The notes under the pieces: generated by a model
Database searches by the model: none
The model's input: the letters and a program-made list of their open reading frames with translations, nothing else
What the model was told of the DNA's origin: nothing
Shown here: one piece after another, positions 2,481 to 25,600 of the stretch
How the letters are laid out: the number at the start of each line of letters is the position of its first letter
Numbering within the stretch: position 1 is the stretch's first letter
Program-made: the position numbers and the translations under genes
IMG/VR virus record: IMGVR_UViG_3300030380_002510
Span: 1 to 56,283 of that record
Strand: one strand, 5' to 3'
DNA from: a virus
Taxonomy: Duplodnaviria; Caudoviricetes
Length of the DNA stretch: 56,283 nt

Positions 2481-3721
2481 TGCGAAAAGCCACTTTACCT
2501 ACTATGCGAGAATTAGGTTTAAGTTTTGATGATTTAGTTAATCAAGGATATAACTTAAGACATATTCCCGAAGAAAGAGAAAGTACTTTTTATCAACCAC
2601 AATTACTAAACAAACCTGCTAACAGACAATATGAAATAAATTATGCTTCAAAAAAAGATGACTATAAAAAAATACCCGGATTACATACAGAACCCCAACT
2701 TGACATGACCTTACCACGAAATAGTATAGATTCTTATTTTGTAAGTCCTCCTACAAGAAGGGGAATTTTATCGGCAGATGTGACATTTCCCGGTAAAAGT
2801 ACATTAATAGGAGTTAAAAATAGAAATGACGACTATGGTGTAGATTTTTGGAGAACTGATAGACAAGGTGCAGGTAGTAGAGGTGGTGAAGGTTTAATTT
2901 ATGGTGAATTACCAAAAGAAAATTTTGTAAAAATACCTACTAATATGCTACCTATGGATGCTCTTTTAGCGAATCGGCAGTATGGTATAAACCGTTTTTC
3001 AAATGGAATGCCTATAGATGAGGCTTTTGATGCTTTAGAATATACTTACCCCGAAGTCCATAGTATAGCATCGCAATTTCCTAATGTAAGTACTGAATCT
3101 ACATCTTGGCAAGAACCTGCACAATACAGGGGTACTAATCCAATACTTTTAGATGAAATAGATAATAAAGTAGCAAGCGAACCAATGAACATCGCTATGC
3201 GGTTGTTGAAAAATGAACCCGCAGATTATGTTGATACTTTTCGGCGTGTTGATAACAACATCGGTGCTGATGGTAGATACATGACAGATGAAGAATTAGC
3301 GGAGATTGATGCTCGTTATACAAAATTGCATGACGACGAAGACCACTTTGAAGAGTATTACAATTTATTGGAAGCAATTGAACTTGAGCAAATGAGAAGG
3401 AAAAATGAATCGTTTGATGGTATAGGCTATAACGAAGAAACAGGCTTTACTCGTAGCGAACCAATGGAAATTGCTATGCAATTACTCAAAGAGCGTGTAA
3501 GCCCCGAAGCGAAGCGACACAAGTTAGAGTATGATAAGAAGTATGAATCTTCACCGGAGAGAGTAAAGTACCGTGAAGAGTTGAACCGTGAGCGTAGGCG
3601 TAGACACATTATGGGGCAGGGTGGACCGGATATGAGCCACACCAAAGACCATACCATTGTACCGGAAAGCCCTCATACCAATCGGGCAAGACATTTTAAA
3701 GACAAAGGAACTCTCTTGTAA
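2477..3721 (+). CDS. Modular protein: ART-like paralog domain, acidic module, C-terminal HNH-like basic module
   Basis: ATGA overlap with the upstream gene. YFVSP...LIGVK...EGLIYGELPKENF parallels 816..2480. Two SEPMxIAMxLLK linkers. C-terminal DMSH...ESPHTNRAR. Confidence 0.6.
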   Translation: MMRKATLPTMRELGLSFDDLVNQGYNLRHIPEERESTFYQPQLLNKPANRQYEINYASKKDDYKKIPGLHTEPQLDMTLPRNSIDSYFVSPPTRRGILSADVTFPGKSTLIGVKNRNDDYGVDFWRTDRQGAGSRGGEGLIYGELPKENFVKIPTNMLPMDALLANRQYGINRFSNGMPIDEAFDALEYTYPEVHSIASQFPNVSTESTSWQEPAQYRGTNPILLDEIDNKVASEPMNIAMRLLKNEPADYVDTFRRVDNNIGADGRYMTDEELAEIDARYTKLHDDEDHFEEYYNLLEAIELEQMRRKNESFDGIGYNEETGFTRSEPMEIAMQLLKERVSPEAKRHKLEYDKKYESSPERVKYREELNRERRRRHIMGQGGPDMSHTKDHTIVPESPHTNRARHFKDKGTLL

Positions 3722-3890
3722 TAGTCAAATATTCAAAATGTTCACTATGTTAGTCAATAAAATGACTATTCACTTTACTCATTACTCTCTAATAATAATA
3801 TAATATATTTGTATAGTCAAATAAATGAACATGAACATGAACATTTTGAATAATGAATGGAAATCTTTATATTGACTAAAAAATTGACTA
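3721..3890. repeat. Repeat-rich AT-rich intergenic element (inverted and direct repeats)
   Basis: 15-bp perfect inverted repeat TATTCAAAATGTTCA (3730-3744) / TGAACATTTTGAATA (3838-3852). Direct repeat ATAGTCAAATA at 3721 and 3813. TAGTCAA x3 and TTGACTA x2. (ATGAAC)x3 at 3825-3842. A/T-only core 3791-3810. Confidence 0.85.
3865..3873 (+). promoter_or_regulatory. Putative archaeal TATA box for a leaderless transcript of the GTPase cluster
   Basis: CTTTATATT about 18-26 nt upstream of ATG 3891, which has no SD. Confidence 0.5.
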
Positions 3891-4445
3891 ATGGTGAGCA
3901 AGATGCAAGGTACAGGACAAGACTCGGATGCAGAAATAAGATTGATGGGGCTAATTTTAGCCCAATCAGCGTTAGTAGGATTAGCAATAGGTGTGTTTGA
4001 TGCAGACTTATGGTTAGAAAGTGATACGGCTATGTTAAATGGATTTACATACGCTATGGCCGCTTTCTTTGTACAAGGTATTGCTTATTATTTCTTTAAA
4101 ATGTTCTTTGAACAAAACATGCAAGAAAGAGTAAGAGCAACAGGAATGCAAAGGTCAAGAGATGCAAGATACAAACAAATGCAAATGAATTTTGACAACA
4201 GAAGAGTTGAGATGGAGATGCGAATGCAAGAAGCGCAACTTGAGCGTGAATTGCGTTGGATGGAAGCAAACCCCGGTAAGATGCCTCCGAGTTGGGGTGT
4301 ACCGGGTGGTTCACAATCTATAGTTGCACAATATGATTCCGGTCAATTCAATCCCGGTATACCAAGTCATGAAGTTGAAGTAGACCAACCAATTAATTTA
4401 GGTATTAAAGAAGAGGAAGAAAAAGAAGAAAAGAAGAAAAAGTGA
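3891..4445 (+). CDS. Two-TM membrane protein with coiled coil
   Basis: Hydrophobic segments LMGLILAQSALVGLAIGVF and GFTYAMAAFFVQGIAYYFF, then a charged helical stretch (RRVEMEMRMQEAQLERELRWME) and an E/K tail. Confidence 0.8.
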   Translation: MVSKMQGTGQDSDAEIRLMGLILAQSALVGLAIGVFDADLWLESDTAMLNGFTYAMAAFFVQGIAYYFFKMFFEQNMQERVRATGMQRSRDARYKQMQMNFDNRRVEMEMRMQEAQLERELRWMEANPGKMPPSWGVPGGSQSIVAQYDSGQFNPGIPSHEVEVDQPINLGIKEEEEKEEKKKK

Positions 4446-4454
4446 GGTGGTTAG

Positions 4455-4697
4455 TTGGGTCGTATTTTCAAAACCCCTACTGATGATTCAACAGAAGCAA
4501 CATTACGGGCTATGCACACTCAAAATATGTTAGATACATATTATGAAAAAGGTGTAGGTTGGTTAAGAACTATTCTTTTTGTATTAATCGCAGTGCTTGT
4601 AACAAGTGCTTTTGAATTAAAAACCGGAGATTCAATATGGGAAAATACAGTTGAATGGTTTTGGAATAAAATAGAAAGTTGGGTAAGTGGTGATTAA
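4455..4697 (+). CDS. Small single-TM membrane protein with Trp-rich amphipathic C-terminus
   Basis: TTG start after GAGGTGG. TM ILFVLIAVLVTSAF. Tail SIWENTVEWFWNKIESWVS. Confidence 0.75.
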   Translation: MGRIFKTPTDDSTEATLRAMHTQNMLDTYYEKGVGWLRTILFVLIAVLVTSAFELKTGDSIWENTVEWFWNKIESWVSGD

Positions 4698-5414
4698 ATG
4701 GTTGAACCTGCCGGTACTGCTTTAGTTGGTGTTGCAGTATGGGGGCAGAATCTATATAATTCTTGGCGACCAAGAAAAGTAGGTATTTATGGTGCGGCTA
4801 TGGTAGGTAAAACTACACTAGACAGATATATGACTACACCCGGTGAAATGGAAGAAATACCCGATGAAGAAAGAACAAGCCACATGAGATTACTTGGAAA
4901 ATATCTATTACCAAAACCTACTAGAAAGCGTATATCATGGAAAGGAGATAGAAGAGTAGTTTTTTCTGCTGACTTAGGTGGACAAGAAAGATTTTGGTCG
5001 TTATGGATAGATGATATGGTAGCAAGACAAGTTGAAGCAGTGGTATACATGTTTGATGAAAGAGCATTTAACGGTGGAGATGAAGCACTACAACAAATAG
5101 CCGGATTCAAATATTTAGTAGACTGTTTAATCAATAAACAATATAGGTATCGTACATTAAAAAGTAGATGGAAAGGTAAAAAATACGCACCAAGACTTGT
5201 TATGCTTATAGCAAATAAGGCTGACAGATTTTTTGATGAAAATGCCGCTATGTTATGGCAACAAAACAGAATAGGAGAGCATAAAGTGTTTGACCCATTT
5301 AGAGATGATTTAGTTAGATTACAAAAAGCCGGTATACCCACAAGAAGGTCTTTTATGGCTACAAGAATAGGTTGGAATGTTGAAACTACATTAATAGATT
5401 TATTATCAACATAG
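4698..5414 (+). CDS. Ras-superfamily (Arf/Sar1-like) small GTPase
   Basis: G1 GAAMVGKTT, candidate G2 Thr (ERT or KPT), G3 DLGGQERF, G4 ANKAD, G5-like ATRIGWNV. Hydrophobic N-terminal segment. SD GGTGA upstream. Confidence 0.92.
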   Translation: MVEPAGTALVGVAVWGQNLYNSWRPRKVGIYGAAMVGKTTLDRYMTTPGEMEEIPDEERTSHMRLLGKYLLPKPTRKRISWKGDRRVVFSADLGGQERFWSLWIDDMVARQVEAVVYMFDERAFNGGDEALQQIAGFKYLVDCLINKQYRYRTLKSRWKGKKYAPRLVMLIANKADRFFDENAAMLWQQNRIGEHKVFDPFRDDLVRLQKAGIPTRRSFMATRIGWNVETTLIDLLST

Positions 5415-5422
5415 GTGATTAT

Positions 5423-5593
5423 ATGAAAAAAGAAACAAAAATTATAGCAGTAAATAAAAATACAAAATGTGTAAGAACAGTAATTCCTAATGCGATGGCT
5501 GAATTATTAAATATTAAAGCCGGAGATACAATTAATTGGGAATTAAAAACTAAAGATGGAGTATTTCATCTTGAAGTAAGAAAGGGGGCATGA
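5423..5593 (+). CDS. AbrB/SpoVT/MazE-type swapped-hairpin DNA-binding protein (56 aa)
   Basis: Below the track length cut-off. Hand-translated MKKETKIIAVNKNTKCVRTVIPNAMAELLNIKAGDTINWELKTKDGVFHLEVRKGA. The IP...LNIKAGD.I.W pattern is typical of AbrB domains. SD AGGTGA. Confidence 0.8.
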   Translation: MKKETKIIAVNKNTKCVRTVIPNAMAELLNIKAGDTINWELKTKDGVFHLEVRKGA

Positions 5594-5594
5594 C

Positions 5595-6533
5595 ATGTAT
5601 ACAGGTAATCAACCAAGTTTAGGTCAAGTAAACCAAGCGCATTTACTTGCTTTAAGTCAACAAGGAAATGACACTTTAACTCATAGAGCGTTAATAGAAC
5701 AAGCAACTGCACAAGCGGCTATGCAAGAAGCATCAAAGAAAACTGATTTACAAGTTCCTAAAGTAAACTTCTATCCAAGTCGTCATCCTAATCCAATAAA
5801 AGCAAGAAGAAAAGATATTAAACAGGCTTACAAATTACTTACACCTACTAAAAGAAGTATTTTAAATCCATTTAGATTGTTTTTTGGAAGAAAGTATCGC
5901 TACAATAAACAAAGTCATGTATGTGTAGTAGATGGTTGCGATTGTGCAAATTTAATTCAATATGATAATTTGTATGCTAAAATTACTGATGAAGATACAG
6001 GAGAATCTTTGTGGGATTTGTATTGGAAAAATCCGGTCACAGGAGAACCGGAAGCATTTGTCGCTCGTGAAAAAGTAACAAGTGGCCGTAAAATGCGTGG
6101 TACATACTGCCCCGAACACATGCACCTATACCATTTACTTTGTAAGTGGGAAGCAGAAGAAGATAAACTAAGTGAAGCAAATCCTAAAAGACTTAGAGAT
6201 AGAGTTAAAAAAGGAGTATCAATTGTCACAGTTCCTATCACTGCAATAAAGAAAAACGACCCTACACCGGAAATGTTGAAAAAATACGAGCCATTTTTTG
6301 CTGAATTAGAAAAAGATGCAAGAAAAACTAAAGGAATTAACATTCAGTATTATACTAATCCTATGACTAATCAAAATGATATTACTATTGTAAGTTTTGA
6401 TTTAAGAATATTTCAGCATGAGTTGGCTATGTTTAATCAACCTACACCTGCTTTTCAAGCCATGTTAAATCAACAAGTAGAAGAAGTAGTTAATCAAAAC
6501 ACAAATATGGTAGATACCCTTCCGAGTGAGTGA
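5595..6533 (+). CDS. Hypothetical protein with putative split Zn site
   Basis: 312 aa. CVVDGCDC and YCPEH motifs. Basic/aromatic patch ILNPFRLFFGRKYRY. Confidence 0.7.
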   Translation: MYTGNQPSLGQVNQAHLLALSQQGNDTLTHRALIEQATAQAAMQEASKKTDLQVPKVNFYPSRHPNPIKARRKDIKQAYKLLTPTKRSILNPFRLFFGRKYRYNKQSHVCVVDGCDCANLIQYDNLYAKITDEDTGESLWDLYWKNPVTGEPEAFVAREKVTSGRKMRGTYCPEHMHLYHLLCKWEAEEDKLSEANPKRLRDRVKKGVSIVTVPITAIKKNDPTPEMLKKYEPFFAELEKDARKTKGINIQYYTNPMTNQNDITIVSFDLRIFQHELAMFNQPTPAFQAMLNQQVEEVVNQNTNMVDTLPSE

Positions 6534-7162
6534 TAGAGATGTTAAGATTGAATGGAAATAACCAAAATACAGGTACATTAAACTTAGGTGTACCATCTCA
6601 ACAAGGACAAATGCCGGTGCAAAATGCTAATCCGTGGGGGCAACAACAACAATCTAATTCATTCGTGGCGGGTTTATTCGGTGGACAACAACAAGCCAAT
6701 CAATATACACAACAACCTATTCAACCACCAAGTGAAATAGAAATTCAAATGGAATTATTAAAACAACAAGCAATTATTGAAAGATATGTTGCTAGTAGTC
6801 AAATGGGAGTGCTAATTGAAATGATGAGTAGTGTTGTGACACTAAGTGTATTAGAAATATTAAGAGGTGCTACATTTGTTATAAATGAAGACGATGGTAC
6901 ATTAAAATTAGATACAACTACTTTACCTGCTAATTTACAAACTATGAGTGTAGAAAATATAGAAAGTCAATTTACTAATTTACAAGCATCAGCACAACAA
7001 GTAGTAAATCAAAGTGAAATGACTCAACATCAATTAGCCGCACTAGCCCAACAGTCTATGATGGGAGGGGCTATAGCGGCATTACAAAGTGAAGGAATGA
7101 TGGAAAAAGTTGGAGGCGGAGTAGGAAGTTTCGCTCGCTCAATAATAACAGGAGGAAGATAA
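6530..7162 (+). CDS. Gln-rich hypothetical protein
   Basis: 210 aa, GTGA overlap with the previous gene. Q/P-rich N-terminus, helical middle, Gly-rich amphipathic C-terminus. Confidence 0.75.
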   Translation: MIEMLRLNGNNQNTGTLNLGVPSQQGQMPVQNANPWGQQQQSNSFVAGLFGGQQQANQYTQQPIQPPSEIEIQMELLKQQAIIERYVASSQMGVLIEMMSSVVTLSVLEILRGATFVINEDDGTLKLDTTTLPANLQTMSVENIESQFTNLQASAQQVVNQSEMTQHQLAALAQQSMMGGAIAALQSEGMMEKVGGGVGSFARSIITGGR

Positions 7163-7163
7163 T

Positions 7164-7415
7164 ATGCTAGATAAAGATTATACAACATACATACCACAAT
7201 CTTTTGCCGCATCTACATTAGATGTACTTAATCCGAATAGAAGTGTAATTATTGATATGATTATGGTACAAATTATTTCTATGATTGTAGTTATGTGTAT
7301 GATTTTAGTTTTCAAAGGCGGCAGTATGCCTTCTTCAACAATATCATATTTCTTGGTTGGACTGTTTGCTAGTGTCCTTATGCTTAGTGGTGTCTATTCT
7401 CGTATTACTCGGTGA
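7164..7415 (+). CDS. Small two-TM membrane protein (holin-like topology)
   Basis: 83 aa. IIDMIMVQIISMIVVMCMILVF and YFLVGLFASVLMLSGVY, short basic C-terminus. Confidence 0.75.
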   Translation: MLDKDYTTYIPQSFAASTLDVLNPNRSVIIDMIMVQIISMIVVMCMILVFKGGSMPSSTISYFLVGLFASVLMLSGVYSRITR

Positions 7416-7679
7416 AGGCCATTTACCTATAGGACATGTTGAGTTTAACAAATTAATTTTAGTTTTAATAAAACAACCACATAAATCACATCTCTTACCA
7501 CCGTAAGGACATAATTCACATGCCTGTTTTCTTAAATCGTATAACATAGGTGGACACAAATCACCTTTTACTGTATCTTTTACTGCTTGAGTAAGACTCT
7601 TGAGAGTGTACATATTAAGAGGTACACCTGCAACTCTTTTAGCCTCCCACATATAACTTTCCAAGTTATTTTTAGTCAT
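7344..7679 (-). CDS. Small Cys-rich Zn-binding protein
   Basis: Start moved to ATG 7679 (MTKNNLES) to avoid overlap with the gene at 7714. Motif CELC...RCDLCGCFIKTK...CPIGKW, a pattern common in small viral proteins. Confidence 0.75.
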   Translation of the reverse strand: MTKNNLESYMWEAKRVAGVPLNMYTLKSLTQAVKDTVKGDLCPPMLYDLRKQACELCPYGGKRCDLCGCFIKTKINLLNSTCPIGKWPSPSNTRIDTTKHKDTSKQSNQEI

Positions 7680-7713
7680 AAGTATTTTGTAATGGGTACG
7701 CCTAAGCCCGTAT

Positions 7714-8394
7714 ATGCAGGGGGCGGAGCGTGTAGTGAAACGGTCCTGTAAACTGTGTACACATGAAGATAGAGATGAGTTAGAACAACAACTTCTCAAC
7801 GGTCATATTTCTCCAAAAGAATTAGACAAAACAATGAGTTGGCGAGCCAACACTACTGATAGACATTTCCGTAATCATATGGGAGAATACCATATGGCGG
7901 CTAACCCTTCATGTCCTGTATGCGCTAGTCCTAAAAGAGCCGAATATGAGAATGAATATTTTCAAGGTAGCGCAGATACAGAACTAATTGCTGATGAGGT
8001 AGGTTGTGCAGAAAGAACAGTATACAACCACATGAAACATCATTTCCAACCTTTAGTGCAAAAAACTGCGGCCTATGAAGTAGCATTAGCCGCAGGTCAA
8101 GAAATTCAAGTACTCCGTTCAAATGCAGAAAAACTTAATCATAAACTAAGTGAATTGTTAGATGAAGGTACAGTACATGAAGATGGATTTGTCCGTGATG
8201 CGGTGATACTACACAAAGAAGTAAGAGAAACAGTAAAAGATTTACTTCGTTTCCAAGACCAATGGGGGGCTAAAACAGATAATCAACAAGTCAATCAAAC
8301 AATCAATGTATTACAAATTGAACTTAGTAAAGAAAGCCCCGAAACTTGGACTAGAATTAAAAAACAGTTGGCTGAAAATATGGGGGTAGAATAA
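7714..8394 (+). CDS. Probable terminase small subunit (tandem Zn-HTH domains plus coiled coil)
   Basis: Two CxxC-HTH-HxxxH units (CKLC...RHFRNH; CPVC...NHMKHH), a helical oligomerisation region and C-terminal QVNQTINVLQI. First gene of the run leading to TerL. Confidence 0.55.
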   Translation: MQGAERVVKRSCKLCTHEDRDELEQQLLNGHISPKELDKTMSWRANTTDRHFRNHMGEYHMAANPSCPVCASPKRAEYENEYFQGSADTELIADEVGCAERTVYNHMKHHFQPLVQKTAAYEVALAAGQEIQVLRSNAEKLNHKLSELLDEGTVHEDGFVRDAVILHKEVRETVKDLLRFQDQWGAKTDNQQVNQTINVLQIELSKESPETWTRIKKQLAENMGVE

Positions 8395-12807: not shown

Positions 12808-14295
12808 ATGAGCGAGAATATGAAAGAGTTTATCCTTGATATGGATAGGAAGATGGCTGAAAAGTCATTTAAGTTCTTTTTTACAGAAATACTTGGTTTT
12901 CATTACAGTCATCACCATAAAATGTGGGATGAAGGATTAAAGGGAAACAGATACTATTGTGTTAAAGCGAGCCGTGACCACGGTAAATCTACTTTGTTTA
13001 TGTCGTATGCTTTATGGATAGCCGCATTTAATCCCGGTACTCACATCATGATATTTTCACATTCATTAGAACAGACACTTGAACACATGAGATTTATCCG
13101 TAATAATATAGAAAGTGCCGATATTCTTAGAGGTCTAAAACCCGAACAAGGTAGACCGTGGGCTAAGTCTTACTTTGAGTTCACCAACGGTAGCCGTATA
13201 ATGGCTAAGTCTGTTGGTGGTGCTACTCGTGGTTTCCACCCCGATGTAGTAGTATGCGATGACATTTTGTGGGGTACTACGGGTGGAGAACTTCAAAGAG
13301 CCGCAGATTGGTTCTATGGTGTATTACTTCCGGTACTTCACCACACTGCACGATTAATGATGGTTGGTACACCGTTTAGTTATAATGACTTATATGCAGA
13401 ACTAGAAGAAAAAGAAACATTCCAAGTAGAAACTTATCCCGCTATCAATGGAGAAGGTATAGCCCTTTGGCCGGAAAGATGGAATCTTGAGGCTCTTGAA
13501 CAAAGACGATTATCAATGCCCGCTATACAATTTAGCCGTGAGTATCTTTGTGAACCTATTCACGATGTAGCGAGTATGTTCCCCGCTTCAATTCTTGAGG
13601 CGGCTCGTGATAAAGAGTTAGTGCTTCTTGATAGAGCAGATACCGAATATGATGAAGAAGGAAATCCGGCAGGTGTATTTGGACAACACTTTATCGGGTG
13701 GGACACCGCTATTGCATCGGATAAAAACGCTGACTTCACTGCTATGTTAGTATTAAGAACACCACCGGGTGATAATATCAAGGAAATAGTAGGTATCGTA
13801 CACGAGAAAGGGCTTGGCGGTGCGGCACAGAAAAAACAAATTTTACTGTTAAATAACAGATTTCAACCGGATTTAATAGAACTTGAAGGTAATAACTTTC
13901 AGCGTATGTTCGCCGCAGAACTTCAAGATATGAGAGGGGATATTCCTATTCGTACATTTATGACAACACGCCAAAGAAAAGAGAGTATGTTTATGTCGCT
14001 ACTCATGGCGTTTGAGCAAGGACAGATAAAAACTCCATACGGTGATGAGCGAAGTCGTGAATTTACACACAAGTTAGAATCCGAGTTAAACAGATTTGGT
14101 ATGCAAAAGAACGGCAAACTAGAATCTGTAGGTACTCATGATGACTTGGCTATGGCTTTGGCTTTGGCTAATTGGGGTACAAAAGAGTTCAAAGGTTCAG
14201 TGGTGCTTCTTGACGATATACTACCGGGCTTTGATGAATTTATTAGAGGGAAACCTCACAGAAATTATGGAAAAAATGATTGGGTGATACCGTGA
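12808..14295 (+). CDS. terL: Terminase large subunit
   Basis: Walker A ASRDHGKST, Walker B VVVCDDI, motif III VGTP, RNase H-like nuclease GWDTA...IELEGN...HDDLAMALALA. Confidence 0.97.
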   Translation: MSENMKEFILDMDRKMAEKSFKFFFTEILGFHYSHHHKMWDEGLKGNRYYCVKASRDHGKSTLFMSYALWIAAFNPGTHIMIFSHSLEQTLEHMRFIRNNIESADILRGLKPEQGRPWAKSYFEFTNGSRIMAKSVGGATRGFHPDVVVCDDILWGTTGGELQRAADWFYGVLLPVLHHTARLMMVGTPFSYNDLYAELEEKETFQVETYPAINGEGIALWPERWNLEALEQRRLSMPAIQFSREYLCEPIHDVASMFPASILEAARDKELVLLDRADTEYDEEGNPAGVFGQHFIGWDTAIASDKNADFTAMLVLRTPPGDNIKEIVGIVHEKGLGGAAQKKQILLLNNRFQPDLIELEGNNFQRMFAAELQDMRGDIPIRTFMTTRQRKESMFMSLLMAFEQGQIKTPYGDERSREFTHKLESELNRFGMQKNGKLESVGTHDDLAMALALANWGTKEFKGSVVLLDDILPGFDEFIRGKPHRNYGKNDWVIP

Positions 14296-15389: not shown

Positions 15390-16700
15390 TTGGTGGTCAA
15401 TATGTGGGGTAGTGCGTTGCTAGGCGATGAGTATGACCTAGCCATTTACCCTGCTGATAATTTAACTAAAAGTGTGTTGAGTAATCTTTCTCAACACCCC
15501 GATTTTGTTGTTCATAATGCACCAATAGAAAAGTCATCAAGTTTGTTTTCTAATGATGATATTAAGTCTTATAGTTTTGCTTCTAACGGAGATGGGTGGT
15601 TAGAAAGCACATACGGTAAAGATGCTAATTCAATAATTCGTATGTGTAGAAAAATGCGAAGAATAGATAAAAATAATCGTGAAAGTATTGATTTAATTAT
15701 AGATGATATTCGTACAATTAAGGCGATGGAAGTAGAGGCTACTATCAATAATTTATCGTGGAGTGATGGATTAGAAGATGTAATAAAAAATATAGGTCTT
15801 AATGATAGAAGCCTCAAAGCACTTCGCAAGTTTGGTGAATCCCGTTCATCATCTTTACAAAAAGCGTGTCAATTATATCTTAAGTCTATGACAGTATTAA
15901 ATTTATTAAATGATAAATTAGATTGGGGTATAGACGACCAAAAAGAATGGGCTAATGCTTTACAATTGAAAAAAGATGCTCGTAAAATGTGGTCTAGTAC
16001 TTTACATCAAATAGATAAATTATCTAAAACAGATAAATTAACACTTGATTTTGTTTCAAAACAATTAACTGAATCCGGTCCATTAAGTAGTCGTGAGTTA
16101 GTTCGTAGAGGGGTTGGGATGCTTCATAAATCTACTACGCCAAGTAAAGTTAGTAGTTTAATTAAAATGTATGGCGAAGAAGTAGATATTTACAAAAGTA
16201 GTAGCCGTGGCAATTTTGTAAAATTAGATACTCACGGTTTAATCATAAAAGATATATGGGCTTATGCGGCAGGTTTTCTTGATGCTGACGGAAGTATATT
16301 CATAACAGAAAGAGGCGAGCCGAGAGCGACTTTTATCGCTACAGGTGATAGAGGCCGTATGCAGTGTGAAGAACTACACAAAGCATTAGGTTGTGGTCGT
16401 TTAGTTCTCAATCAAAGAATACACAAAAATAGCGTAAGAAGCCAACATAGACTCATATTTTCATCAAAAGATGATTTAAGACAATTATTAAAAGGTATTT
16501 TACCCCATCTAAAAATGAAATCGCTACAAGCAAAAGCGGTTTTATCTTTTGTAGATGAAAAAGATAGAATGAGAAAAGACGAGTTATATCGTTTAGTCAC
16601 ATTTAACAATTGGAAAGATGATAAAAAGAAAGCCGATAGTTTCTTGAGTAAATGGGGCGTGGATGCAGATACAATAGGTAAGTATGCGGAGAGTTTGTAA
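15390..16700 (+). CDS. LAGLIDADG endonuclease-domain protein with long N-terminal extension
   Basis: WAYAAGFLDADGSIFI motif, followed by LGCGRL and ILPHLKMK..QA typical of single-motif LAGLIDADG domains. Start may be ATG 15402. Confidence 0.85.
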   Translation: MVVNMWGSALLGDEYDLAIYPADNLTKSVLSNLSQHPDFVVHNAPIEKSSSLFSNDDIKSYSFASNGDGWLESTYGKDANSIIRMCRKMRRIDKNNRESIDLIIDDIRTIKAMEVEATINNLSWSDGLEDVIKNIGLNDRSLKALRKFGESRSSSLQKACQLYLKSMTVLNLLNDKLDWGIDDQKEWANALQLKKDARKMWSSTLHQIDKLSKTDKLTLDFVSKQLTESGPLSSRELVRRGVGMLHKSTTPSKVSSLIKMYGEEVDIYKSSSRGNFVKLDTHGLIIKDIWAYAAGFLDADGSIFITERGEPRATFIATGDRGRMQCEELHKALGCGRLVLNQRIHKNSVRSQHRLIFSSKDDLRQLLKGILPHLKMKSLQAKAVLSFVDEKDRMRKDELYRLVTFNNWKDDKKKADSFLSKWGVDADTIGKYAESL

Positions 16701-18451
16701 TGGCTGATGATGAAAGTAGAATTAGTAGGTTTTTATCAACCTTAAGTAAACCGTTTAAGCGTAAGTCATCACCAACTCCAACTATGCCACTTTGGACAAG
16801 TGGTATACAAGAACCTGTTATGGCACAGGGAATTACTATCCCTGCTTTGTACGCAGTAAGTACAGAATGTTTAATTCTTAGAACTGTATTATCTAAATTA
16901 AGACAAGAAATGTTTAGACGAGGTTATTATTGGGAGAAGCAATTTCATAAGAAGTGTGTACAATGTGATGAGGAATTTCAACATAATGTAGAGTCTTGTG
17001 AAACATGTGGTGGTGAAGTTAGAGGACCGGATAATGATGAATTAGTTTATGCTAAGTGGTTATTGAAACAAGAAAACAGTATGGAGCAACAGTTTTTACA
17101 TATATTGCATGAACTTGAAAATGACCTAAATATAGTAGATGATGCTTTCTTATTATTTGTAAAAGAATACTATATAGACCCCGAAACCAAAGAAGTAGCA
17201 TTTTATCGTGTAAAAGAAATGATTAGAGGCGACCCAATATTCATGAGAATAGTTGCTGATAAAAGAGGTGTAAGAGGTGGCCGATACAAAACTTGTTTAA
17301 TTCACCGGGACCAAGTTAAAACACATGCCGAAGACGACAAGTGTGAAGTATGCGGTAGTGATTTACACGATGTACATTATGTAAATATGGCGGGTAGTGG
17401 TAAAACACAATACTTTGTTGAGGGTGAAGTTCTCCATGTAAGTAAGTACAATCCATCTAAATTGTATGGTCGCTCTCCTGTAAATACTATGTGGAGGCAA
17501 GCCATGACTCTAACTGCTATGGATAACTACATGTACACTGCATATCAAAAGCGTAGAATGCCTAAAGGTATTATATCTGTGACAACCGATAATCTTGAAT
17601 CTATGAAATCATTTTGGAAATCAGTAGATGAAAAAATGGAGCGTGACCCGCACTATGTACCTAAAGTTGGTATTGAATCTAGCACAGGTAGAGGTGGGGT
17701 TAATTGGATTAAATTTATGGACACACTAGAAGAAATGCAGTATATTGCAGTTCGTGATGAGATTCGTAATCGTATAGCCGCATATTTTGGCGTATCAAGT
17801 ATTTTTATGGTAGATAACGGTAAATCGGGTGGACTCAACAATGAAGGTCTACAAATTCTTGTGACAAATCGTGCAGTAGAGTTTGGACAAAAAATCTATA
17901 CAGATGTACTATTTCCTAAAATTCTAAAACAAATGGGAGTGTTTGATTGGAAATTAACTCTTTATCCGAATGAAGAAGAAGATGAAATAACAAGACTACG
18001 CCGTGATGAACAAGAGTTGAATGTAGCACAAAGAATGGCTCAATTAGGATTTGTACCGGAATTAATTAGTGGTGATACAAGTAGCGATATTAAATTTGTA
18101 TATCGTAAACCCGAACCTCAAGCACAACAAGCACCACCACCCGGAGGCGCACCACCAATGATGCCACCAAGAGGTATGCCACCGGGTATGCCTATGGGTG
18201 GTATGCCTCAAGGTATGCCGATGGGAGGATTACCACCGGGTATGCCGATGGGTAGTATGCCGATGCCACCTCCACAACCGGGCGGTGAAGGTATGGGAAT
18301 ACGCAATCGTGGACCTGCCGCACCGCAAAGAAGAACATCGCCGGGAAGTGGTGCGCCTGTAACAAGTGTTCAACAAAGAGGACCAACATCATCATTAGGA
18401 CAACAAAATGTAAATGCTCTTCAAAATGCTAGAAGATTTAGGGGTGCTTAA
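16700..18451 (+). CDS. Portal protein
   Basis: Lies between TerL and the protease. Portal-like motifs DLNIVDDAFL, LYGRSPV, MPKGII, IAAYFGVS. Two Cys-rich inserts and a P/M/G-rich tail. Confidence 0.9.
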   Translation: MADDESRISRFLSTLSKPFKRKSSPTPTMPLWTSGIQEPVMAQGITIPALYAVSTECLILRTVLSKLRQEMFRRGYYWEKQFHKKCVQCDEEFQHNVESCETCGGEVRGPDNDELVYAKWLLKQENSMEQQFLHILHELENDLNIVDDAFLLFVKEYYIDPETKEVAFYRVKEMIRGDPIFMRIVADKRGVRGGRYKTCLIHRDQVKTHAEDDKCEVCGSDLHDVHYVNMAGSGKTQYFVEGEVLHVSKYNPSKLYGRSPVNTMWRQAMTLTAMDNYMYTAYQKRRMPKGIISVTTDNLESMKSFWKSVDEKMERDPHYVPKVGIESSTGRGGVNWIKFMDTLEEMQYIAVRDEIRNRIAAYFGVSSIFMVDNGKSGGLNNEGLQILVTNRAVEFGQKIYTDVLFPKILKQMGVFDWKLTLYPNEEEDEITRLRRDEQELNVAQRMAQLGFVPELISGDTSSDIKFVYRKPEPQAQQAPPPGGAPPMMPPRGMPPGMPMGGMPQGMPMGGLPPGMPMGSMPMPPPQPGGEGMGIRNRGPAAPQRRTSPGSGAPVTSVQQRGPTSSLGQQNVNALQNARRFRGA

Positions 18452-20044: not shown

Positions 20045-23000
20045 ATGATAGATGAATTTAACATTTGTAAAAATGACTTTCTAATATCATTATACGATGG
20101 TTTAGATTTATCTCGTAATGCGGCTGAATATGTAATGGCTTGGGAGTCATTAGAAAAAGCCCCGCTAGATAATATTTCTTTAAGTCTTAAAGATACTGCT
20201 GAATTAATACTAAAGAATGAAAGTAATTTCGTAAGAGGTGAAAATAAAATATTTGATTTACCTAAAAAAGAAGGACCGGGTTATCTTCTTGCATCTAAAA
20301 CAACTTTTGGAGAACCCACTAATCATGTATGGGCTGACGGATTAGCAATAGATGAAGGTAGAAAGTATGGTATGTACCCTAAATACATAGCAAAACCCAC
20401 ATCTTCATACAAAGACCATCATTTTCCTTATCATGAGTTTAATCACCCACTTAGACAAATAAATAGTCATAGTGGATTACCTAACATGTTTGAATTACTT
20501 AGAGCGTTAGGTCCGGGTGGTTATGGAAAAGATGAAAGAGATATGGAGCGAGCATGGTTTAAAGAAATGACCGAGGCTAATAGTCCACTAATTACAGGAT
20601 ATAAGGCAGGTAAAAAGTCTATACCGATATTAGGCGACATAAACACATTCGGTACAATTGGTAATCACCAATACGATTTGTATGAAAGAGATTTTAGAAG
20701 ATGGCAAAAAGAAAACCCATTAGAATACGGTTTGACAGAAAATGAATTAAGGGATATGCACTTTAACGATAAAGTCAAAGAATGGTCTTCACCTATTGAT
20801 GGGTTAAGTCATGATGGATTTATGTTTGGGCTTGAATGGTTTTCACCCGAAGAAAGAGAAGGTTTGGAATCACAAATAAGTAAAGGTATAGATGACAAAA
20901 CTACACTTACATTACCTAATGGACAAAAAATCCCATCAGCAAGAATAGCATATAACAACTTAATGAGAAGAACACCGGAAATGAATTTTATGATTAGGTC
21001 TAACGGTCATTTTGGAAGAAACTCTCACTATAGACAACAATCAAATGAAGAAGATTATAGTCAAGGTGAAAACAGATTTATTCAATCAGCAGTGGCAGAT
21101 ACAATGCACACTTATAATTCATATTTAGATGAACCTGTAGCAAAATATATCTTAGATGAAATAAACGATAAGTATGTTGAAGAAGGTAAAAAACCATTTG
21201 AAAGATTACCTGCATTAAACTTACACAAAGAAAAATACAAAGATGAGTACGGGTTAAAAGACTTGAGAGCAGGTGCTAGAAAAGAAAGAATGTCTATGGA
21301 AGATGTATTATTTTTAGCAGGTTTTGACCCCGAAACTAAACAACTAATTGGAAATCACCCTATACACGGTAAAATGGAAGGACCAATTATAGGTTTAGAT
21401 ATTTTAAGTGCTTTAGAAAATGAGGCAAAAAGCAATAGTACTTTACAACAAAAAGCCAAAGATATGTTAAATCATCGTGCTTTTTTTACTTCTCCACATG
21501 GACCTCACCCCGATGAAACCAAACCTAAATATTGGCGTATTGACGATGATGGTTTTACCTATGGACCAAGTAAATTCTATGAAAGAATGTACTCTAACAT
21601 ACCGGGTATGAATCTATCACCTGCTACTTGGATGGAATTTAATCATTCAATGTCGCCGGATAAAGACTCATCTTATTTATTTGAAACAGACCCTACCGGA
21701 AGACAATTTTTCAAACCTCATTCTAATAACAAAATATTAGGTATGCACTTTGGTCCTAATGAAACAAAGGAATTAGGTTATTTATCACCGGAAACTAATA
21801 GATTTACATACTCAAATTTACCTAATCCGATGGTAAATATATTTTCACCATTTGGTACAAGTAGAAGCACTAACTTAACTGATAAAACTAATTATACAGA
21901 ACATAAATCTGCAATAAATCCTATATATGAATATTTTATGAGAAATGCTAGTTCTCAAGATAAAAAAGATTTAGGCACTGCAAATAAACACATGGCTCTC
22001 CATAAAGTGCATAATCCTACTTTACTAAATACTCCCGAAGCATATTATGGTTCTAATCCTACAGATACTCGTTTACATGAAAAAGCAGTTAAATCACATA
22101 TTCTTAACACATTCTTAGGTAGGAGAGAACACCCTTTTACACCACCTAAAAAAGCAGTTGCACAGTTGAAAGATTTGTTAAATGGTGATTTAGCAATAAG
22201 TGGTGGGTTAGATTTACAGGAGTTCAAAGATTACATAAATTGGGATTCTAAACCTATTACATATAGTAATGTAAAAAATATTATGGAAATGGGAGATTAT
22301 TCGGCAGTTCGCTTAGTAAACGCCGTTAGTGATATATTAGGTACAAAAAGAGCAGATAAAATTAACGAGTTCATAGGTAAATTAGACGGTGATAAAAATA
22401 ATGAAGAACATAAGAAATTACATGATTACTATATGGAAAATCATGACTTTCAACCATTTGATAAAATTAATATTAATGAAGCAACATCGGGAATACGAGA
22501 TATTGTGAATAAAGTACATCAGCAAAAAATGAAGCAAAGTAAATCTAAGAAAATACTTACTAATGAACATGATGCTATTAATGCTATTCTAAGTTTTGGA
22601 GGTAATCAAAAGTCTACTGAACAAGAAAAAAGATTTAGAGAAACTATAGATTCAATTAATCAAATGTTGTTAAATCCTAATTTATCTCAAGCAGATGTAA
22701 TGGGTCTAAGAGATGACATGAAAGAAGCAGTTAAAGGACTTAATGCAGTTCAATCAAAAAGTAAACCCGATAACTTTTGGAAAATAGGGGCAAATCAAAA
22801 ACTACAGGCTCTAAAAGGTCATCACGATACAATTGTAGACTATGCTAAAAATACCATCATGCCCTTAGTGCTTGAACAACAACCCGATGCTTTTGACCCC
22901 AACAATCCTGTACAGTTTATACACAATGCACAAAAAATGTTATCCGATACTCAAAAACATATACTAAGCACTAACAATCATAACCTAACCACTACTAACT

Positions 23001-25600
23001 ATGGTAGAAGTTTTGAAATAAAACAAAACAAACAACTTACTCAACATAATGAAATAGCAAGTCATTTACTAAACAATGGTAAACAAATAGACGGTAATAT
23101 GACAGTAGATGAAGTAATAGAAATGTTAAATCTAACTAAAACACCTACTATGAAAGAACATGTAAGAAATATTATTGATGAGTCTAGTAAAAGACAAGTT
23201 CCTCTTATTGTAGATACAATAAGTAATATGTTAGTGAACGGGCCTATATCTCAAATTGGTAATACAGATATATCCCATTTACAAGAACCTAACAATGAAA
23301 TAATAAATTCTAATTATGATGAATTAAGTAGTGCTGATAAGTTTCATCATGATACTCACAATCTAGGTTTACATCAAGCGATAGACTTAGCACAAAAAAG
23401 AGCAGGTAAAGAAAAAGAAAATTGGAAAGCGCATAAAATACATGCAATATCTCAAGTATTACCTAGATTATTGAATAGACAACAATACGGAGCATCTATG
23501 CAAAATAGCGGTTTAGAATTTTTCCATGCAAACGATTTTGATGTACACGGTGTAAAATCTGCCGGTAAAGGAATTAAAAGAAATACTTTTGCTACTAAAA
23601 ATAATCTTGACTCATTAGCGGTATTAGATGAAAGAATGCTATATGATGAACAGGGTAATGTTATTGATAGTGCTTTTATGCCCGAAGAAAATGAAGTTGT
23701 TACATCGGCAGGTATGACAAAGACAAAAATTGGAAAAGTAAATCCTTCTAATGCTAGTATGTATAACATATTTGGTGGTGGAGCAATACATGAAGGTACT
23801 TTAGCAAAACCTAGTTTTGGTATTGAAACAAATATGAATGGTGAACCTATAGTTGGACAATACGGCCAAGAAGGATTATATCACACAGTAAGTGAAGAAG
23901 CATTAAATAATTTATTTGGAAAAGACATTACTCAACAAGTTCTTACAACACTACCACCACCACAAAACCCATTGTCTGCTCATCAAGGTTTAGATATGGA
24001 AACATATACATCACCTTCCGACGACCCATCAAGTATCGCTATGAGCGAAATTTCAACATATATTACATCACTTCTTAATCCCGATGTATTATTAATGAAA
24101 AATGATGATGTAAAGTGGTCGCCTCCGATTAGACCCATGCACCGTATATTTGAATTAAATGACCTTGAACACATGAGAGGTTTTAGTGGTTCATGGGTAG
24201 TAAGTAAATGGTATGATGGTAAAAGAGTAATAATAGTAAACGAGGATGACACTATTACTGTTTATGATGAAAACGGTAAGAAAGTAGGTCTTAGAAAATC
24301 ATTCAAAGAAAATTTATCAAAACTTAACAAAAGAGATTATGTTATTGATGGTATATTAGGTGAAGATGAATTAAATATAGTTGATATTTTAAATTATGAT
24401 GCTAACAATGTAAGCGACATGTTGTTGCATGAAAGAATGAAATTATTAAGGAGTCAATTTGATAGCCATGAAAATATCATTATACCCGGACCACATGATA
24501 CTAAAATGACTGACGATGAGGGTTTAGATGACGCAGTAAAAAGCCTTCAAGAAGAACATGGTGTATTATTACTTAGAGATAATAAATCTACTTATATGAA
24601 AGGAGAGCGTAGACACCCTAAGTGGTTAATTCTTAGAAAAACTAAAGATTACAACTTTATTATTTTAAATGTAAAAGGAAAGAACACCCACACATATCAG
24701 TTAGGTGCAGGTCCGATACTTGACGGTTCTAAGTTAGGTAATAGAGCAGTAGAAGTAAATGGGAATTATTACATGGACATAGGAACTATACATAATCAAA
24801 AAACTGAATATAAAGTTGGTGATATAGTTAGAGTATCTATTACAGGTATTACAAAGAAAACTCGTGGTGGTAGAGATGTTTTCAATGTACAAATGAAAGA
24901 AATCATAGGTGAGGGTGAGGGTGAGGGTGCGGCTAGTGCAGAATCTTTAAATTTACTAACTAAGTCATTTAACCCTATACTTGTACCTCATGATATAGAA
25001 TTTGAAGATAATAAATTAAAAGTAATTTTAAAAGATATTGATACTGTAGAGTATAATGTAGTTGAGCATGACAATATGTGGTACTTAGAAAATCCACATA
25101 CCGCTTTAAGTGATTTAAGAAAAACAAGTTATCCTATTACACTTGCTGAAAGTATGCTTCCTTATTGGAGTTCAGTTGCACCACTTATGTTTAGTGGACA
25201 TATAATAAAAGATGATGTGTTAAGTCAAAAACCACCAAGCCGTAAAAAACAAGAAAAACAATCAGCAGGTGTATTAGAAGCAGATGATGAAAATAGATTA
25301 CTCAAACCTACTACTAAGAAAGCCTTAGAAATTATATCTCGTGCATTAGACCAATTACAAAAAGAACGCACTACATGGACAGGTCCGAAGGGTCTAGGTA
25401 TAGATATGGCTACACCTATTGAATCCCCAAGTGGCCCTACTCGTTTGGCTAATGAAGAAACTATGCCGGACTATGATGGTAGAAAGAGAAGCGATGAAGA
25501 AGAAATTCAGCCTAAAAGTAATGACAAAAAGAAAAAACCAATAAAACATATAGAGATGAGTAATGATGCTTCGCAGTTGTCCGATTTTAATAAAATCTAA
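20045..25600 (+). CDS. 1851-aa head-module protein with a degenerate ATP-dependent DNA ligase (NTase plus OB) module
   Basis: About 24100-24960: VVSKWYDGKRV (motif I), VIDGIL (III), IVDIL (IIIa), LHERMKLL, HGVLLLRDNKSTYMKGERRHPKWLILRK (IV/V), then an OB-like region. N-terminal ~1350 aa unrecognised. Confidence 0.8.
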   Translation: MIDEFNICKNDFLISLYDGLDLSRNAAEYVMAWESLEKAPLDNISLSLKDTAELILKNESNFVRGENKIFDLPKKEGPGYLLASKTTFGEPTNHVWADGLAIDEGRKYGMYPKYIAKPTSSYKDHHFPYHEFNHPLRQINSHSGLPNMFELLRALGPGGYGKDERDMERAWFKEMTEANSPLITGYKAGKKSIPILGDINTFGTIGNHQYDLYERDFRRWQKENPLEYGLTENELRDMHFNDKVKEWSSPIDGLSHDGFMFGLEWFSPEEREGLESQISKGIDDKTTLTLPNGQKIPSARIAYNNLMRRTPEMNFMIRSNGHFGRNSHYRQQSNEEDYSQGENRFIQSAVADTMHTYNSYLDEPVAKYILDEINDKYVEEGKKPFERLPALNLHKEKYKDEYGLKDLRAGARKERMSMEDVLFLAGFDPETKQLIGNHPIHGKMEGPIIGLDILSALENEAKSNSTLQQKAKDMLNHRAFFTSPHGPHPDETKPKYWRIDDDGFTYGPSKFYERMYSNIPGMNLSPATWMEFNHSMSPDKDSSYLFETDPTGRQFFKPHSNNKILGMHFGPNETKELGYLSPETNRFTYSNLPNPMVNIFSPFGTSRSTNLTDKTNYTEHKSAINPIYEYFMRNASSQDKKDLGTANKHMALHKVHNPTLLNTPEAYYGSNPTDTRLHEKAVKSHILNTFLGRREHPFTPPKKAVAQLKDLLNGDLAISGGLDLQEFKDYINWDSKPITYSNVKNIMEMGDYSAVRLVNAVSDILGTKRADKINEFIGKLDGDKNNEEHKKLHDYYMENHDFQPFDKININEATSGIRDIVNKVHQQKMKQSKSKKILTNEHDAINAILSFGGNQKSTEQEKRFRETIDSINQMLLNPNLSQADVMGLRDDMKEAVKGLNAVQSKSKPDNFWKIGANQKLQALKGHHDTIVDYAKNTIMPLVLEQQPDAFDPNNPVQFIHNAQKMLSDTQKHILSTNNHNLTTTNYGRSFEIKQNKQLTQHNEIASHLLNNGKQIDGNMTVDEVIEMLNLTKTPTMKEHVRNIIDESSKRQVPLIVDTISNMLVNGPISQIGNTDISHLQEPNNEIINSNYDELSSADKFHHDTHNLGLHQAIDLAQKRAGKEKENWKAHKIHAISQVLPRLLNRQQYGASMQNSGLEFFHANDFDVHGVKSAGKGIKRNTFATKNNLDSLAVLDERMLYDEQGNVIDSAFMPEENEVVTSAGMTKTKIGKVNPSNASMYNIFGGGAIHEGTLAKPSFGIETNMNGEPIVGQYGQEGLYHTVSEEALNNLFGKDITQQVLTTLPPPQNPLSAHQGLDMETYTSPSDDPSSIAMSEISTYITSLLNPDVLLMKNDDVKWSPPIRPMHRIFELNDLEHMRGFSGSWVVSKWYDGKRVIIVNEDDTITVYDENGKKVGLRKSFKENLSKLNKRDYVIDGILGEDELNIVDILNYDANNVSDMLLHERMKLLRSQFDSHENIIIPGPHDTKMTDDEGLDDAVKSLQEEHGVLLLRDNKSTYMKGERRHPKWLILRKTKDYNFIILNVKGKNTHTYQLGAGPILDGSKLGNRAVEVNGNYYMDIGTIHNQKTEYKVGDIVRVSITGITKKTRGGRDVFNVQMKEIIGEGEGEGAASAESLNLLTKSFNPILVPHDIEFEDNKLKVILKDIDTVEYNVVEHDNMWYLENPHTALSDLRKTSYPITLAESMLPYWSSVAPLMFSGHIIKDDVLSQKPPSRKKQEKQSAGVLEADDENRLLKPTTKKALEIISRALDQLQKERTTWTGPKGLGIDMATPIESPSGPTRLANEETMPDYDGRKRSDEEEIQPKSNDKKKKPIKHIEMSNDASQLSDFNKI

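Follow-up and report, generated by a model that had tools for sequence, protein, structure and literature searches.

The window analysed here is the whole 56,283-base stretch of IMG/VR virus record IMGVR_UViG_3300030380_002510. At 4698–5414, directly behind two genes for small membrane proteins, it carries an open reading frame (ORF) for a basic protein of 238 residues that, judged by its motifs and modelled fold, is very probably a real small GTPase, expected to bind and hydrolyse GTP. The elements of this ORF are:

4698–5414, + strand: small GTPase (P0001), ATG start, 238 amino acids, end coordinate including the stop codon
4707–4766, + strand: N-terminal helix, residues 4–23 (model and hydropathy)
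4791–4814, + strand: G1 or P-loop GAAMVGKT, residues 32–39 (motif)
4836–4919, + strand: insertion after α1 into switch I, residues 47–74, with conserved PGE..IP..RT.H (alignments and model)
4920–4967, + strand: probable G2 residue Thr75 and β2–β3 interswitch hairpin with a basic/aromatic tip, WKGDRR (strands 75–81 and 84–90)
4971–5006, + strand: G3 or switch II DLGGQERFWSLW, residues 92–103, with DLGGQ at 92–96 and Trp103 at D+11 (motif)
5136–5195, + strand: Lys/Arg/aromatic α3–β5 insertion, residues 147–166 (secondary structure of the model)
5214–5225, + strand: G4 NKAD, residues 173–176, guanine specificity (motif)
5355–5366, + strand: G5 region M-A-T-R, with the SAK-like ATR at 221–223 (motif)

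The four strings singled out in the original prediction are all present in the protein, ALVGVAVWGQNLYNSW at residues 8–23, RLLGKYLLPKPTRKRISWK at 64–82, DLGGQERFWSLW at 92–103 and KQYRYRTLKSRWKGKKY at 147–163. Structure prediction had been proposed there as a check. A single-sequence AlphaFold2 model was unusable (predicted local distance difference test score, pLDDT, 34.9), and an alignment-based model was used instead. With a 33-row family alignment, AlphaFold2 returns a G domain at a pLDDT of 89.1 and a predicted template-modelling score of 0.86, in which the N-terminal helix (residues 4–23) is followed by the six strands and five helices of the domain. G1, G3 and G4 thus lie in order on a six-stranded Rossmann-like G domain, as in the small GTPases of the Ras superfamily (TRAFAC class). 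Three additions decorate this core: about 28 residues between α1 and β2 (47–74), the basic α3–β5 segment (147–166), and a helix after G4 (181–188). The protein ends, at residue 238, directly after α5. Thr75 is assigned as the probable G2 residue from its position, and Lys77 is nearly invariant in the family alignments. The G5 region of distant family members reads SA(K/R)xGxNVE. The canonical order of the motifs, the G-domain model and conservation throughout the family argue that the motifs are not there by chance. The single modelled state superposes best on GTP-bound forms. In Arf proteins, the interswitch toggle is a two-residue register shift that links the nucleotide state to release of the N-terminal helix.

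A word-indexed protein search gave 453 relatives at E ≤ 0.01 among 729 candidates. The best 120 of the 453, which are the matches listed, are 76–96% identical and almost all exactly 238 residues long; their sources are marine metagenomes, Tara among them, and the contigs are often about 100 kb in length. An exhaustive HMMER scan of 1.84 billion cluster representatives gave 78 relatives at E ≤ 0.001, and those full-length ones that were aligned all have the motifs and length of the family. When the region of residues 84–135 was used as query (E ≤ 10), 180 candidates were obtained, and all 120 listed resemble the family itself. Profile scans of IMG/VR contigs found 259 of the main lineage, 140 of the P0150 type and 4 of the P0131 type, in sets that may overlap; for P0167, P0160, P0197 and P0132, which occur only on contigs of 9–59 kb, the viral-contig scans gave no confirmed loci. 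A tblastn search with the GTPase gave no match in a phage collection that possibly holds no near relatives of the window. The gene is present in one copy in each of four related viral genomes (G439–G442). ‘GTPase SAR1 family protein’ is the automatic JGI/IMG name of some members. The family is divergent and forms a closed group, restricted to viruses.

Motif conservation was counted in 132 stored family proteins of 200–310 residues, a set biased to close relatives. G1 is kept in 130 of the 132 and the G4 motif [NT]KxD in 129 (NKxD in 128, TKED in one). DxxG is found in 130, and in 129 of those a tryptophan stands at D+11. The residue that follows DxGG is Gln in 93 proteins, Glu in 30, Asp in three, His in two, and Ala and Phe in one each, the remaining two of the 132 having no motif. 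The switch II had originally been described as Arf/Arl-like in both its catalytic glutamine and its downstream tryptophan; the tryptophan bears this out almost without exception, whereas the glutamine is not invariant. Residue 96 alternates between Gln and Glu even in close relatives, and is His, Asp or Ala in divergent lineages, so the catalytic mechanism may differ between members. Histidine at the position of Gln96 recalls Sar1.

The placement of the family among GTPases depends on the type of comparison. As a single sequence, the window protein matches the Pfam model Roc at E 0.0054 (17.4 bits against a cut-off of 27), the Arf model PF00025 at E 0.3 (11 bits against a gathering cut-off of 22.3) and the NCBIfam model small_GTP at E 0.13 (12 bits against 42.5). 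Over 24 aligned members, the Pfam matches are distributed among Roc (17), Arf (15), MMR_HSR1 (7), Gtr1_RagA (6), GTP_EFTU (4) and SRPRB (2), and the best values across these members (matches at E ≤ 1) are 3.3e-4 for Roc and 0.0048 for PF00025. Against the PDB, the single sequence finds only Arl8-type chains, at E of about 0.3. A profile of the 24-row family alignment finds the Asgard Arf-related protein GerdArfR1 first (8oun_A, E 6.9e-8), over profile positions 14–123, from the N-terminal helix through β4; Arl8A and Arl8B (1.1e-4 to 1.6e-3), Rab33B (3.5e-4) and KRas (about 3e-3) come after it. A second profile, of 13 divergent members with none from the close group around the window protein (≥76% identity), also has GerdArfR1 at the top (2.7e-6), then Arl8 (1.5e-4 to 3e-3), Arl5 and Rab33B (5.8e-3). 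Roc or MglA chains are not among the 60 rows listed for the 24-row profile, nor in all 31 matches of the divergent one. Matches to RecA concatemers in the profile searches were rejected as repeated P-loop matches, not homology.

In these alignments switch II, DLGGQERFWSLW, pairs with DIGGQPRFRSMW of Arl8 and DLGGQLHFRNLW of GerdArfR1, and the stretch from Asp92 to Trp103 has the DxGGQ...W signature of Arf and ArfR. This signature with Trp at D+11 is common to Arf, Sar1 and Gα, and is not known from Rab, Ras, Roc or MglA. A VIA structure scan of 48,161 representative chains, independent of Foldseek and read with rows within 1 Z as tied, is led by Arf6 (17.4 and 17.1), Sar1 (17.1) and SRβ (16.4); the Roc domain of LRRK1 reaches 12.9, and MglA chains are absent from the VIA matches listed. 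A feature search of the ESM Atlas returns the protein’s own virus clusters first and then bacterial clusters (scores 0.94–0.95) in which PF00025 is the commonest family, on 17–67% of members. Structural relatives in BFVD are exclusively Rab, Ras and Ran proteins of giant viruses. Grouping with MglA, Roc or translation-type GTPases had been named as the outcome that would speak against an Arf-like protein; the Arf-like reading withstood this check, and GerdArfR1 and Arl8 outrank Rab and Ras in the profile searches. From sequence profiles and the model, the nearest kin is thus likely to be the Arf group (Asgard ArfR, Arl8, Arf, Sar1 and SRβ), with a modest margin, and the support for Arf is one of relative ranking, not of family membership.

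As for Arf and Sar1, a hydrophobic segment had been noted ahead of the G domain, where those proteins have their membrane helix. The comparison holds in the model, where an amphipathic helix precedes β1, as in Arf and ArfR, in a part of low pLDDT. Its first half is rich in Gly, Ala and Val, more hydrophobic and richer in Gly and Ala than a typical Arf helix, and the second half is aromatic, basic and amphipathic (WGQNLYNSWRP). This pattern is present in every lineage. The hydrophobic moment (μH) is 0.54 over residues 15–25 of the window protein, and 0.44–0.78 for the amphipathic half in 23 of the 24 members. Profile positions 14–26 align with the N-terminal helix region of GerdArfR1, and in VIA-align the viral helix superposes on those of membrane-bound yeast Arf1 (2ksq) and Arl2. 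A transmembrane anchor can be excluded by hydropathy: the KD19 maximum at the N-terminus is 0.88 against a transmembrane threshold of 1.6, and the GTPase is therefore peripheral rather than transmembrane.

The isoelectric point (pI) is 9.3–10.2 in all 24 aligned members and about 9.7 in the window protein, values that to our knowledge are unusual for small GTPases. Segment 144–166 has nine Lys or Arg and no Asp or Glu in the window protein, 8–11 Lys or Arg, again with no Asp or Glu, in the 15 closest aligned members, and 4–9 Lys or Arg in more distant ones. The two basic stretches had been described as insertions. This applies to the second, in the α3–β5 connection, which is a true insertion, but not in the simple sense to the first, which starts in the last part of the post-α1 insertion (some 15–18 residues, 47–74) and continues through Thr75, probably of switch I, into strand β2 (75–81). 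Based on the topology of the Ras fold, the α3–β5 loop, the tip of the β2–β3 hairpin (WKGDRR) and the N-terminus should all be located on the face opposite the nucleotide, which is where Arf proteins keep their membrane helix. Insertion of the N-terminus into a membrane, and lipid binding by the basic stretches, would be consistent with this arrangement.

The GTPase gene is the third of a short gene string, whose other features are:

3722–3890, + strand: AT-rich intergenic region of 169 bp upstream of the module, with the TATA-like TTTATATT about 20 nucleotides before the ATG at 3891
3891–4445, + strand: first module gene, 184-residue membrane protein (transmembrane segment 18–36, KD19 maximum 2.16)
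4455–4697, + strand: second module gene, 80-residue single-pass membrane protein (KD19 maximum 2.08, residues 37–55)
5423–5593, + strand: AbrB/MazE-like (SpoVT-AbrB) swapped-hairpin ORF, 56 residues (PF04014, E 3.1e-5, 24.3 bits against a cut-off of 24.7)
5595–6533, + strand: 312-residue neighbour of unknown fold (o5595), no Pfam or PHROG match
6530–7162, + strand: Gln-rich 210-residue protein with one hydrophobic segment (o6530), KD19 maximum 1.81

The stop codon of the 80-residue gene directly abuts the ATG of the GTPase, and the AbrB-like ORF, which is below the default ORF length limit, sits between the GTPase and the 312-residue gene. The order of the two membrane-protein genes, the GTPase, o5595 and o6530 is kept in all 80 closest loci (GTPases 70–96% identical), where the GTPase is the most conserved member of the module, with a median identity of 75% against 44–67% for its neighbours. 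The same order is found in the diverged lineages L083/L084, L104 and L112, with GTPases only 29–41% identical; their small membrane proteins were recognized by position and hydrophobicity, not by BLAST. L083, L084, L104 and L112 all have positional counterparts of the 184-residue protein (148–260 residues), small hydrophobic ORFs of 72–75 residues at the position of the 80-residue gene, and counterparts of the 210-residue protein. By tblastn, the 312-residue gene is found in L083, L084, L101–L104 and three of the four loci of the P0150 lineage. Two ~8-kb contigs with the module, L082 and L083, are filed in alphaproteobacterial metagenome-assembled genomes (titles Maricaulis sp. and Parvibaculum sp.) and look like viral fragments mis-binned into bacterial genomes. 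In L112, of the P0150 type, an ORF two genes upstream of the module (3487–3978) ends in a SAP-like motif, YTVKQLKEMLEEKGLSTDGKKADLVERM, read by eye.

Besides its transmembrane segment, the 184-residue protein has another hydrophobic segment, of aromatic character, and its C-terminal tail is charged. In the 312-residue protein, Cys110, Cys172 and Pro173 are invariant, and His175 and His180 nearly so (alignment A5). A complex prediction for the GTPase and residues 50–285 of this neighbour with GTP and Mg, made without controls, scored 0.04 against a mark of 0.32, a value that speaks neither for nor against an interaction. The ten neighbouring proteins scanned gave no match to a known family of GTPase-activating proteins, guanine-nucleotide exchange factors, Roadblock, ArvB or ArvC. 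Sec7 and above-cut-off ArfGAP matches were not found in the four related viral genomes. The observation, made at the outset, that a Roadblock/MglB partner is missing holds further afield, as the window and the four related viral genomes, three of them complete, are free of Roadblock/LC7 (PF03259) matches at E ≤ 1. A helix-turn-helix (HTH) protein is encoded downstream of the GTPase (GerE, E 0.0068; phrog_867 ‘DNA binding domain’, E 0.0016).

The AT-rich region 3722–3890 would be the promoter of the module. It holds five of the eight copies of TAGTCAAW in the whole window, three on the + and two on the – strand. At least two copies are found in the equivalent 250 nucleotides of only four of 78 related loci; the cluster was therefore discarded as a general operator array, and an operator role would be specific to a sub-lineage at best. 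A sigma-70 promoter and terminator scan, a model not applicable to archaea, gave nothing above shuffled sequences.

The viral nature of the window is evident from its morphogenesis genes, assigned by PHROG profiles:

12808–14295, + strand: large terminase (TerL)
16700–18451, + strand: portal
25666–27075, + strand: head maturation protease
27108–28292, + strand: HK97-type major capsid protein
37226–38257, + strand: tape-measure-like protein

The capsid protein matches only archaeal tailed viruses in the phage collection, best of all those of Haloarcula, HVTV-1, HCTV-5 and HCTV-1, with 31–34% identity and E of about 1e-47. The related viral contigs are 98–110 kb long; three of the four are 100% complete according to CheckV, and one has direct terminal repeats. 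A family-B DNA polymerase is encoded in all four. In a single-cell assembly of an uncultured member of the Poseidoniales, a contig of 106,262 bp carries a GTPase relative of 37% identity. The morphogenesis genes, the halovirus-like capsid, the relatives of about 100 kb, the DNA polymerase and the single-cell contig together suggest that the window is probably derived from a magrovirus-like tailed virus of Poseidoniales (Marine Group II archaea). With a completeness estimate of 52%, the record would represent about half of the genome.

Magroviruses have genomes of about 65–100 kb, a halovirus-related morphogenesis module and, according to Philosof et al. (PMC5434244), archaeal-type replication genes (DNA polymerase, MCM and others), with MCM listed as universal. 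The Pfam MCM model finds no match in any of the four related viral genomes; either their helicase has diverged beyond the reach of the model, or they constitute a different group of Poseidoniales viruses.

With the exception of a single ORF at the left edge and a handful of short candidates, the long ORFs of the window are on the + strand. One of the short candidates is a Cys-rich ORF at 7344–7679 on the – strand, which fills the gap at 7415–7714 and has a weak, below-cut-off match to DUF6171 (E 0.0011). An ORF in the terminase–portal interval (15390–16700, +) has an HNH endonuclease domain (phrog_5046, E 2e-7, residues 291–394). Between the portal and head-protease genes lies an ORF of 1,851 residues (20045–25600, +) without a PHROG match and with a weak match to ATP-dependent DNA ligase, below the cut-off (PF01068, E 2.5e-4, residues 1444–1528). 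The tape-measure-like gene and a 476-residue ORF are followed by an ORF of more than 5,529 residues (39697–56283, +) that continues beyond the window; within residues 1–4,900, Pfam gives no family at E ≤ 0.01, and the product may be a giant tail or adhesin protein.

On the host side, a search of 201 Poseidoniales genomes with the family profile gave as the sole family match the viral contig of the single-cell assembly; three other matches cover 30–34 residues around the P-loop within frames of 547–584 residues. Arf (PF00025) was found in none of 101 Poseidoniales genomes, and ArvB (PF09846) in none of 61, compared with 123 of 301 genomes across the phylum. Because the genomes sampled are incomplete, host homologues are described here as not found in those searched. 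Nothing in these genomes points to a host that donated the gene recently, or to a host system of which the viral one would be a mere duplicate.

Among proteins of known structure, the best profile match is with the Asgard ArfR proteins (GerdArfR1 and HodArfR1; PDB codes 8OUN, 8OUM and 8OUK; Vargová et al.). The alignment with GerdArfR1 shares the N-terminal helix, the P-loop, the interswitch and DLGGQ..F.NLW, and both are proteins of the archaeal world without a myristoylation site. Differences are also evident: the viral protein is about 50–60 residues longer, owing to the post-α1 and basic α3–β5 insertions and the helix after G4, its pI is about 9.7, and its gene resides in a virus of a non-Asgard host. 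The preprint identifies 8OUN as GerdArfR1, an Asgard Arf-related GTPase, and describes ArfR as almost exclusive to Asgardarchaeota, with Korarchaeia as the exception (bioRxiv 10.1101/2024.02.28.582541). Arl8 chains (Arl8A, Arl8B and ARL10B/C) are the best single-sequence PDB matches, with a likeness limited to roughly residues 85–129. The same preprint states for 4ILE that the Arl8 N-terminal helix is non-myristoylated (bioRxiv 10.1101/2024.02.28.582541). The viral genomes differ from the setting of eukaryotic Arl8 in the missing Sec7 and ArfGAP matches noted above. The Rab, Ras and Ran proteins of giant viruses, such as mimivirus Rab (PDB code 5XC5), are recent eukaryotic captures by viruses of eukaryotes, in contrast to the present family, which is deeply divergent, borne by tailed archaeal viruses and has no detected host donor.

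Taken together, we favour a virus-made, membrane-peripheral, GTP-dependent switch that would act with the two co-encoded membrane proteins, and give this reading a probability of about 0.5. In its GTP state, the protein would be positioned on the inner face of the host membrane, bound through the N-terminal hydrophobic and amphipathic helix and through a cationic face made up of the β2–β3 hairpin tip and the Lys/Arg-rich α3–β5 insertion. It could then function as a timed switch with the two viral membrane proteins, reorganizing the host membrane for the virus, with an assembly or egress platform, or vesiculation, as a possible outcome. The virus would supply the switch itself because its host order appears to be without an Arf-like or ArvA/ArvB system.

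Several observations weigh against this proposal. Model confidence is low for the N-terminal helix (mean pLDDT 52 for residues 1–10 and 69 for residues 11–20). No Pfam or NCBIfam cut-off is reached by the window protein, nor any in the Pfam scans of the 24 members, and members matched by the Roc model slightly outnumber those matched by Arf (17 and 15). In the VIA scan, Rab5 is only some 2 Z units behind, and Foldseek alone puts Rab and Ras first (E about 1e-9). A specific Arf or ArfR kinship is unproven, and the switch-II tryptophan could be convergent. A residue other than Gln (Glu, Asp, His, Ala or Phe) follows DxGG in 37 of the 130 proteins with the motif. Finally, a pI near 10 and a Lys/Arg/Tyr-rich insertion are equally compatible with DNA or RNA binding, and the AbrB-like and HTH proteins are encoded near the GTPase.

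The charge and the DNA-binding neighbours make a nucleic-acid-binding or assembly GTPase the main rival, namely a divergent member of the Ras superfamily without specific Arf kinship that would have a cytoplasmic role, either on nucleic acid or in assembling and packaging virions, with the basic patches binding DNA or RNA. The high pI in every aligned member, the segments rich in Lys, Arg and aromatic residues, the position of the gene upstream of the HTH and terminase genes with the AbrB-like ORF directly after it, the Foldseek order, and the weak and mixed Pfam matches can all be accommodated by such a protein. We nevertheless consider it rather unlikely, since Arf-family chains come out first in both the profile and the VIA rankings, two membrane-protein genes always precede the GTPase gene, and the N-terminal helix is conserved in character and superposes on Arf helices.

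The nearest functional precedent in archaea is ArvA (HVO_3014), described by Mills et al. 2024 as an Arf-like Haloferax GTPase with an N-terminal amphipathic helix that is needed for vesicle formation (PMC10927574). It is proposed there to bind the membrane in the GTP state, and its operon partners are ArvB (DUF2073) and ArvC, a Zn-ribbon protein (PMC10927574). By analogy, the viral GTPase may work like ArvA. It could also be an ArvA offshoot that drives budding of the extracellular-vesicle type and replaces the arvABC absent from the host, an alternative that we regard as improbable. In its favour, nine ArvA-type sequences taken from upstream of ArvB genes in the host’s phylum match the viral family in hhalign with a probability of 95.9% (E 5.8e-9), in both, the N-terminal helix leads straight into (R/K)(V/I)GIYG..GKTTL and switch I has an ‘EIP’ motif, ArvB was not found in any of the 61 Poseidoniales genomes searched, and vesicle formation in Haloferax requires ArvA (PMC10927574). 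However, the match covers only 51 columns, corresponding to the end of the N-terminal helix, the P-loop, and the stretch after α1 into switch I (residues 47–74 of the viral protein) with ‘EIP’; G3 in ArvA is DTPG(I) with no Trp at D+11, as opposed to DxGGQ with Trp in the viral protein; and the best solved relatives of ArvA are EngA, Der and Era, a list different from that of the viral family. For these reasons the viral GTPase is not considered an ArvA. The Pfam models DUF2073 (ArvB) and DUF2072 (ArvC) also have no match in the ten viral neighbours, and unlike ArvA with its cellular partners, the viral GTPase is accompanied by two transmembrane proteins and proteins of unknown function.

It is quite improbable that the protein is an SRβ-like, membrane-anchored Arf-type GTPase that tethers a ribosome, translocon or viral membrane protein without remodelling. 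The SRPRB model matches two of the 24 members, the hydrophobic N-terminal segment leads at once into the G domain, and membrane proteins are co-encoded. SRβ has a true transmembrane anchor, though, whereas the viral N-terminus is below the transmembrane threshold, and no SRX-like partner was recognized among the neighbours scanned. Membership in the Roc, MglA or translation-type GTPases is very improbable: Roc is the best single-sequence Pfam match and GTP_EFTU matches four of the 24 members, but none of these matches reaches its curated cut-off, the protein consists of the GTPase domain alone, ending after α5 with no COR or translation-factor domain, which separates it from Roc-COR proteins and translation factors, no Roadblock/MglB was found in the window and four related genomes, and Roc and MglA chains are absent from the profile matches listed.

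The GTPase call is not in itself new, since IMG labels some members automatically as SAR1-family GTPases. What the analysis describes is an Arf-like GTPase that is divergent, basic and bears insertions, and whose gene is a constant part of a membrane-protein module in abundant viruses of archaea. Our literature search found no paper on a GTPase in magroviruses or other viruses of prokaryotes, although supplementary gene tables may list the gene; GTPase terms were not found in the main text of the magrovirus papers searched for them. Papers on magroviruses rank these viruses among the most abundant in the surface ocean. Arf-group small GTPases have been regarded as essentially eukaryotic and Asgard, and small GTPases encoded by viruses are known mainly from giant viruses of eukaryotes.

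A more far-reaching version of the membrane-switch reading is doubtful: an Arf-type membrane switch of the virosphere, outside Asgard archaea and eukaryotes, that would be a sister or early offshoot of ArfR/Arf and part of a self-contained viral membrane-remodelling system. If true, vesicles or an assembly or egress compartment would be built in a host without its own Arf, ArvA or ESCRT-like counterpart, and viruses would be a reservoir and vehicle for ‘eukaryote-like’ trafficking GTPases.

For virology, the family represents a deeply divergent Arf-like GTPase as a conserved, single-copy and strongly constrained viral gene. The key context is that this viral gene follows two small membrane-protein genes and has no counterpart in the host-order genomes searched. 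Little is known about the ways in which tailed viruses of archaea engage the host membrane and exit, and a GTPase encoded behind two membrane proteins is a testable candidate for a part in it. For evolution, models of how Arf-type GTPases arose and spread have to find a place for this virus-borne lineage.

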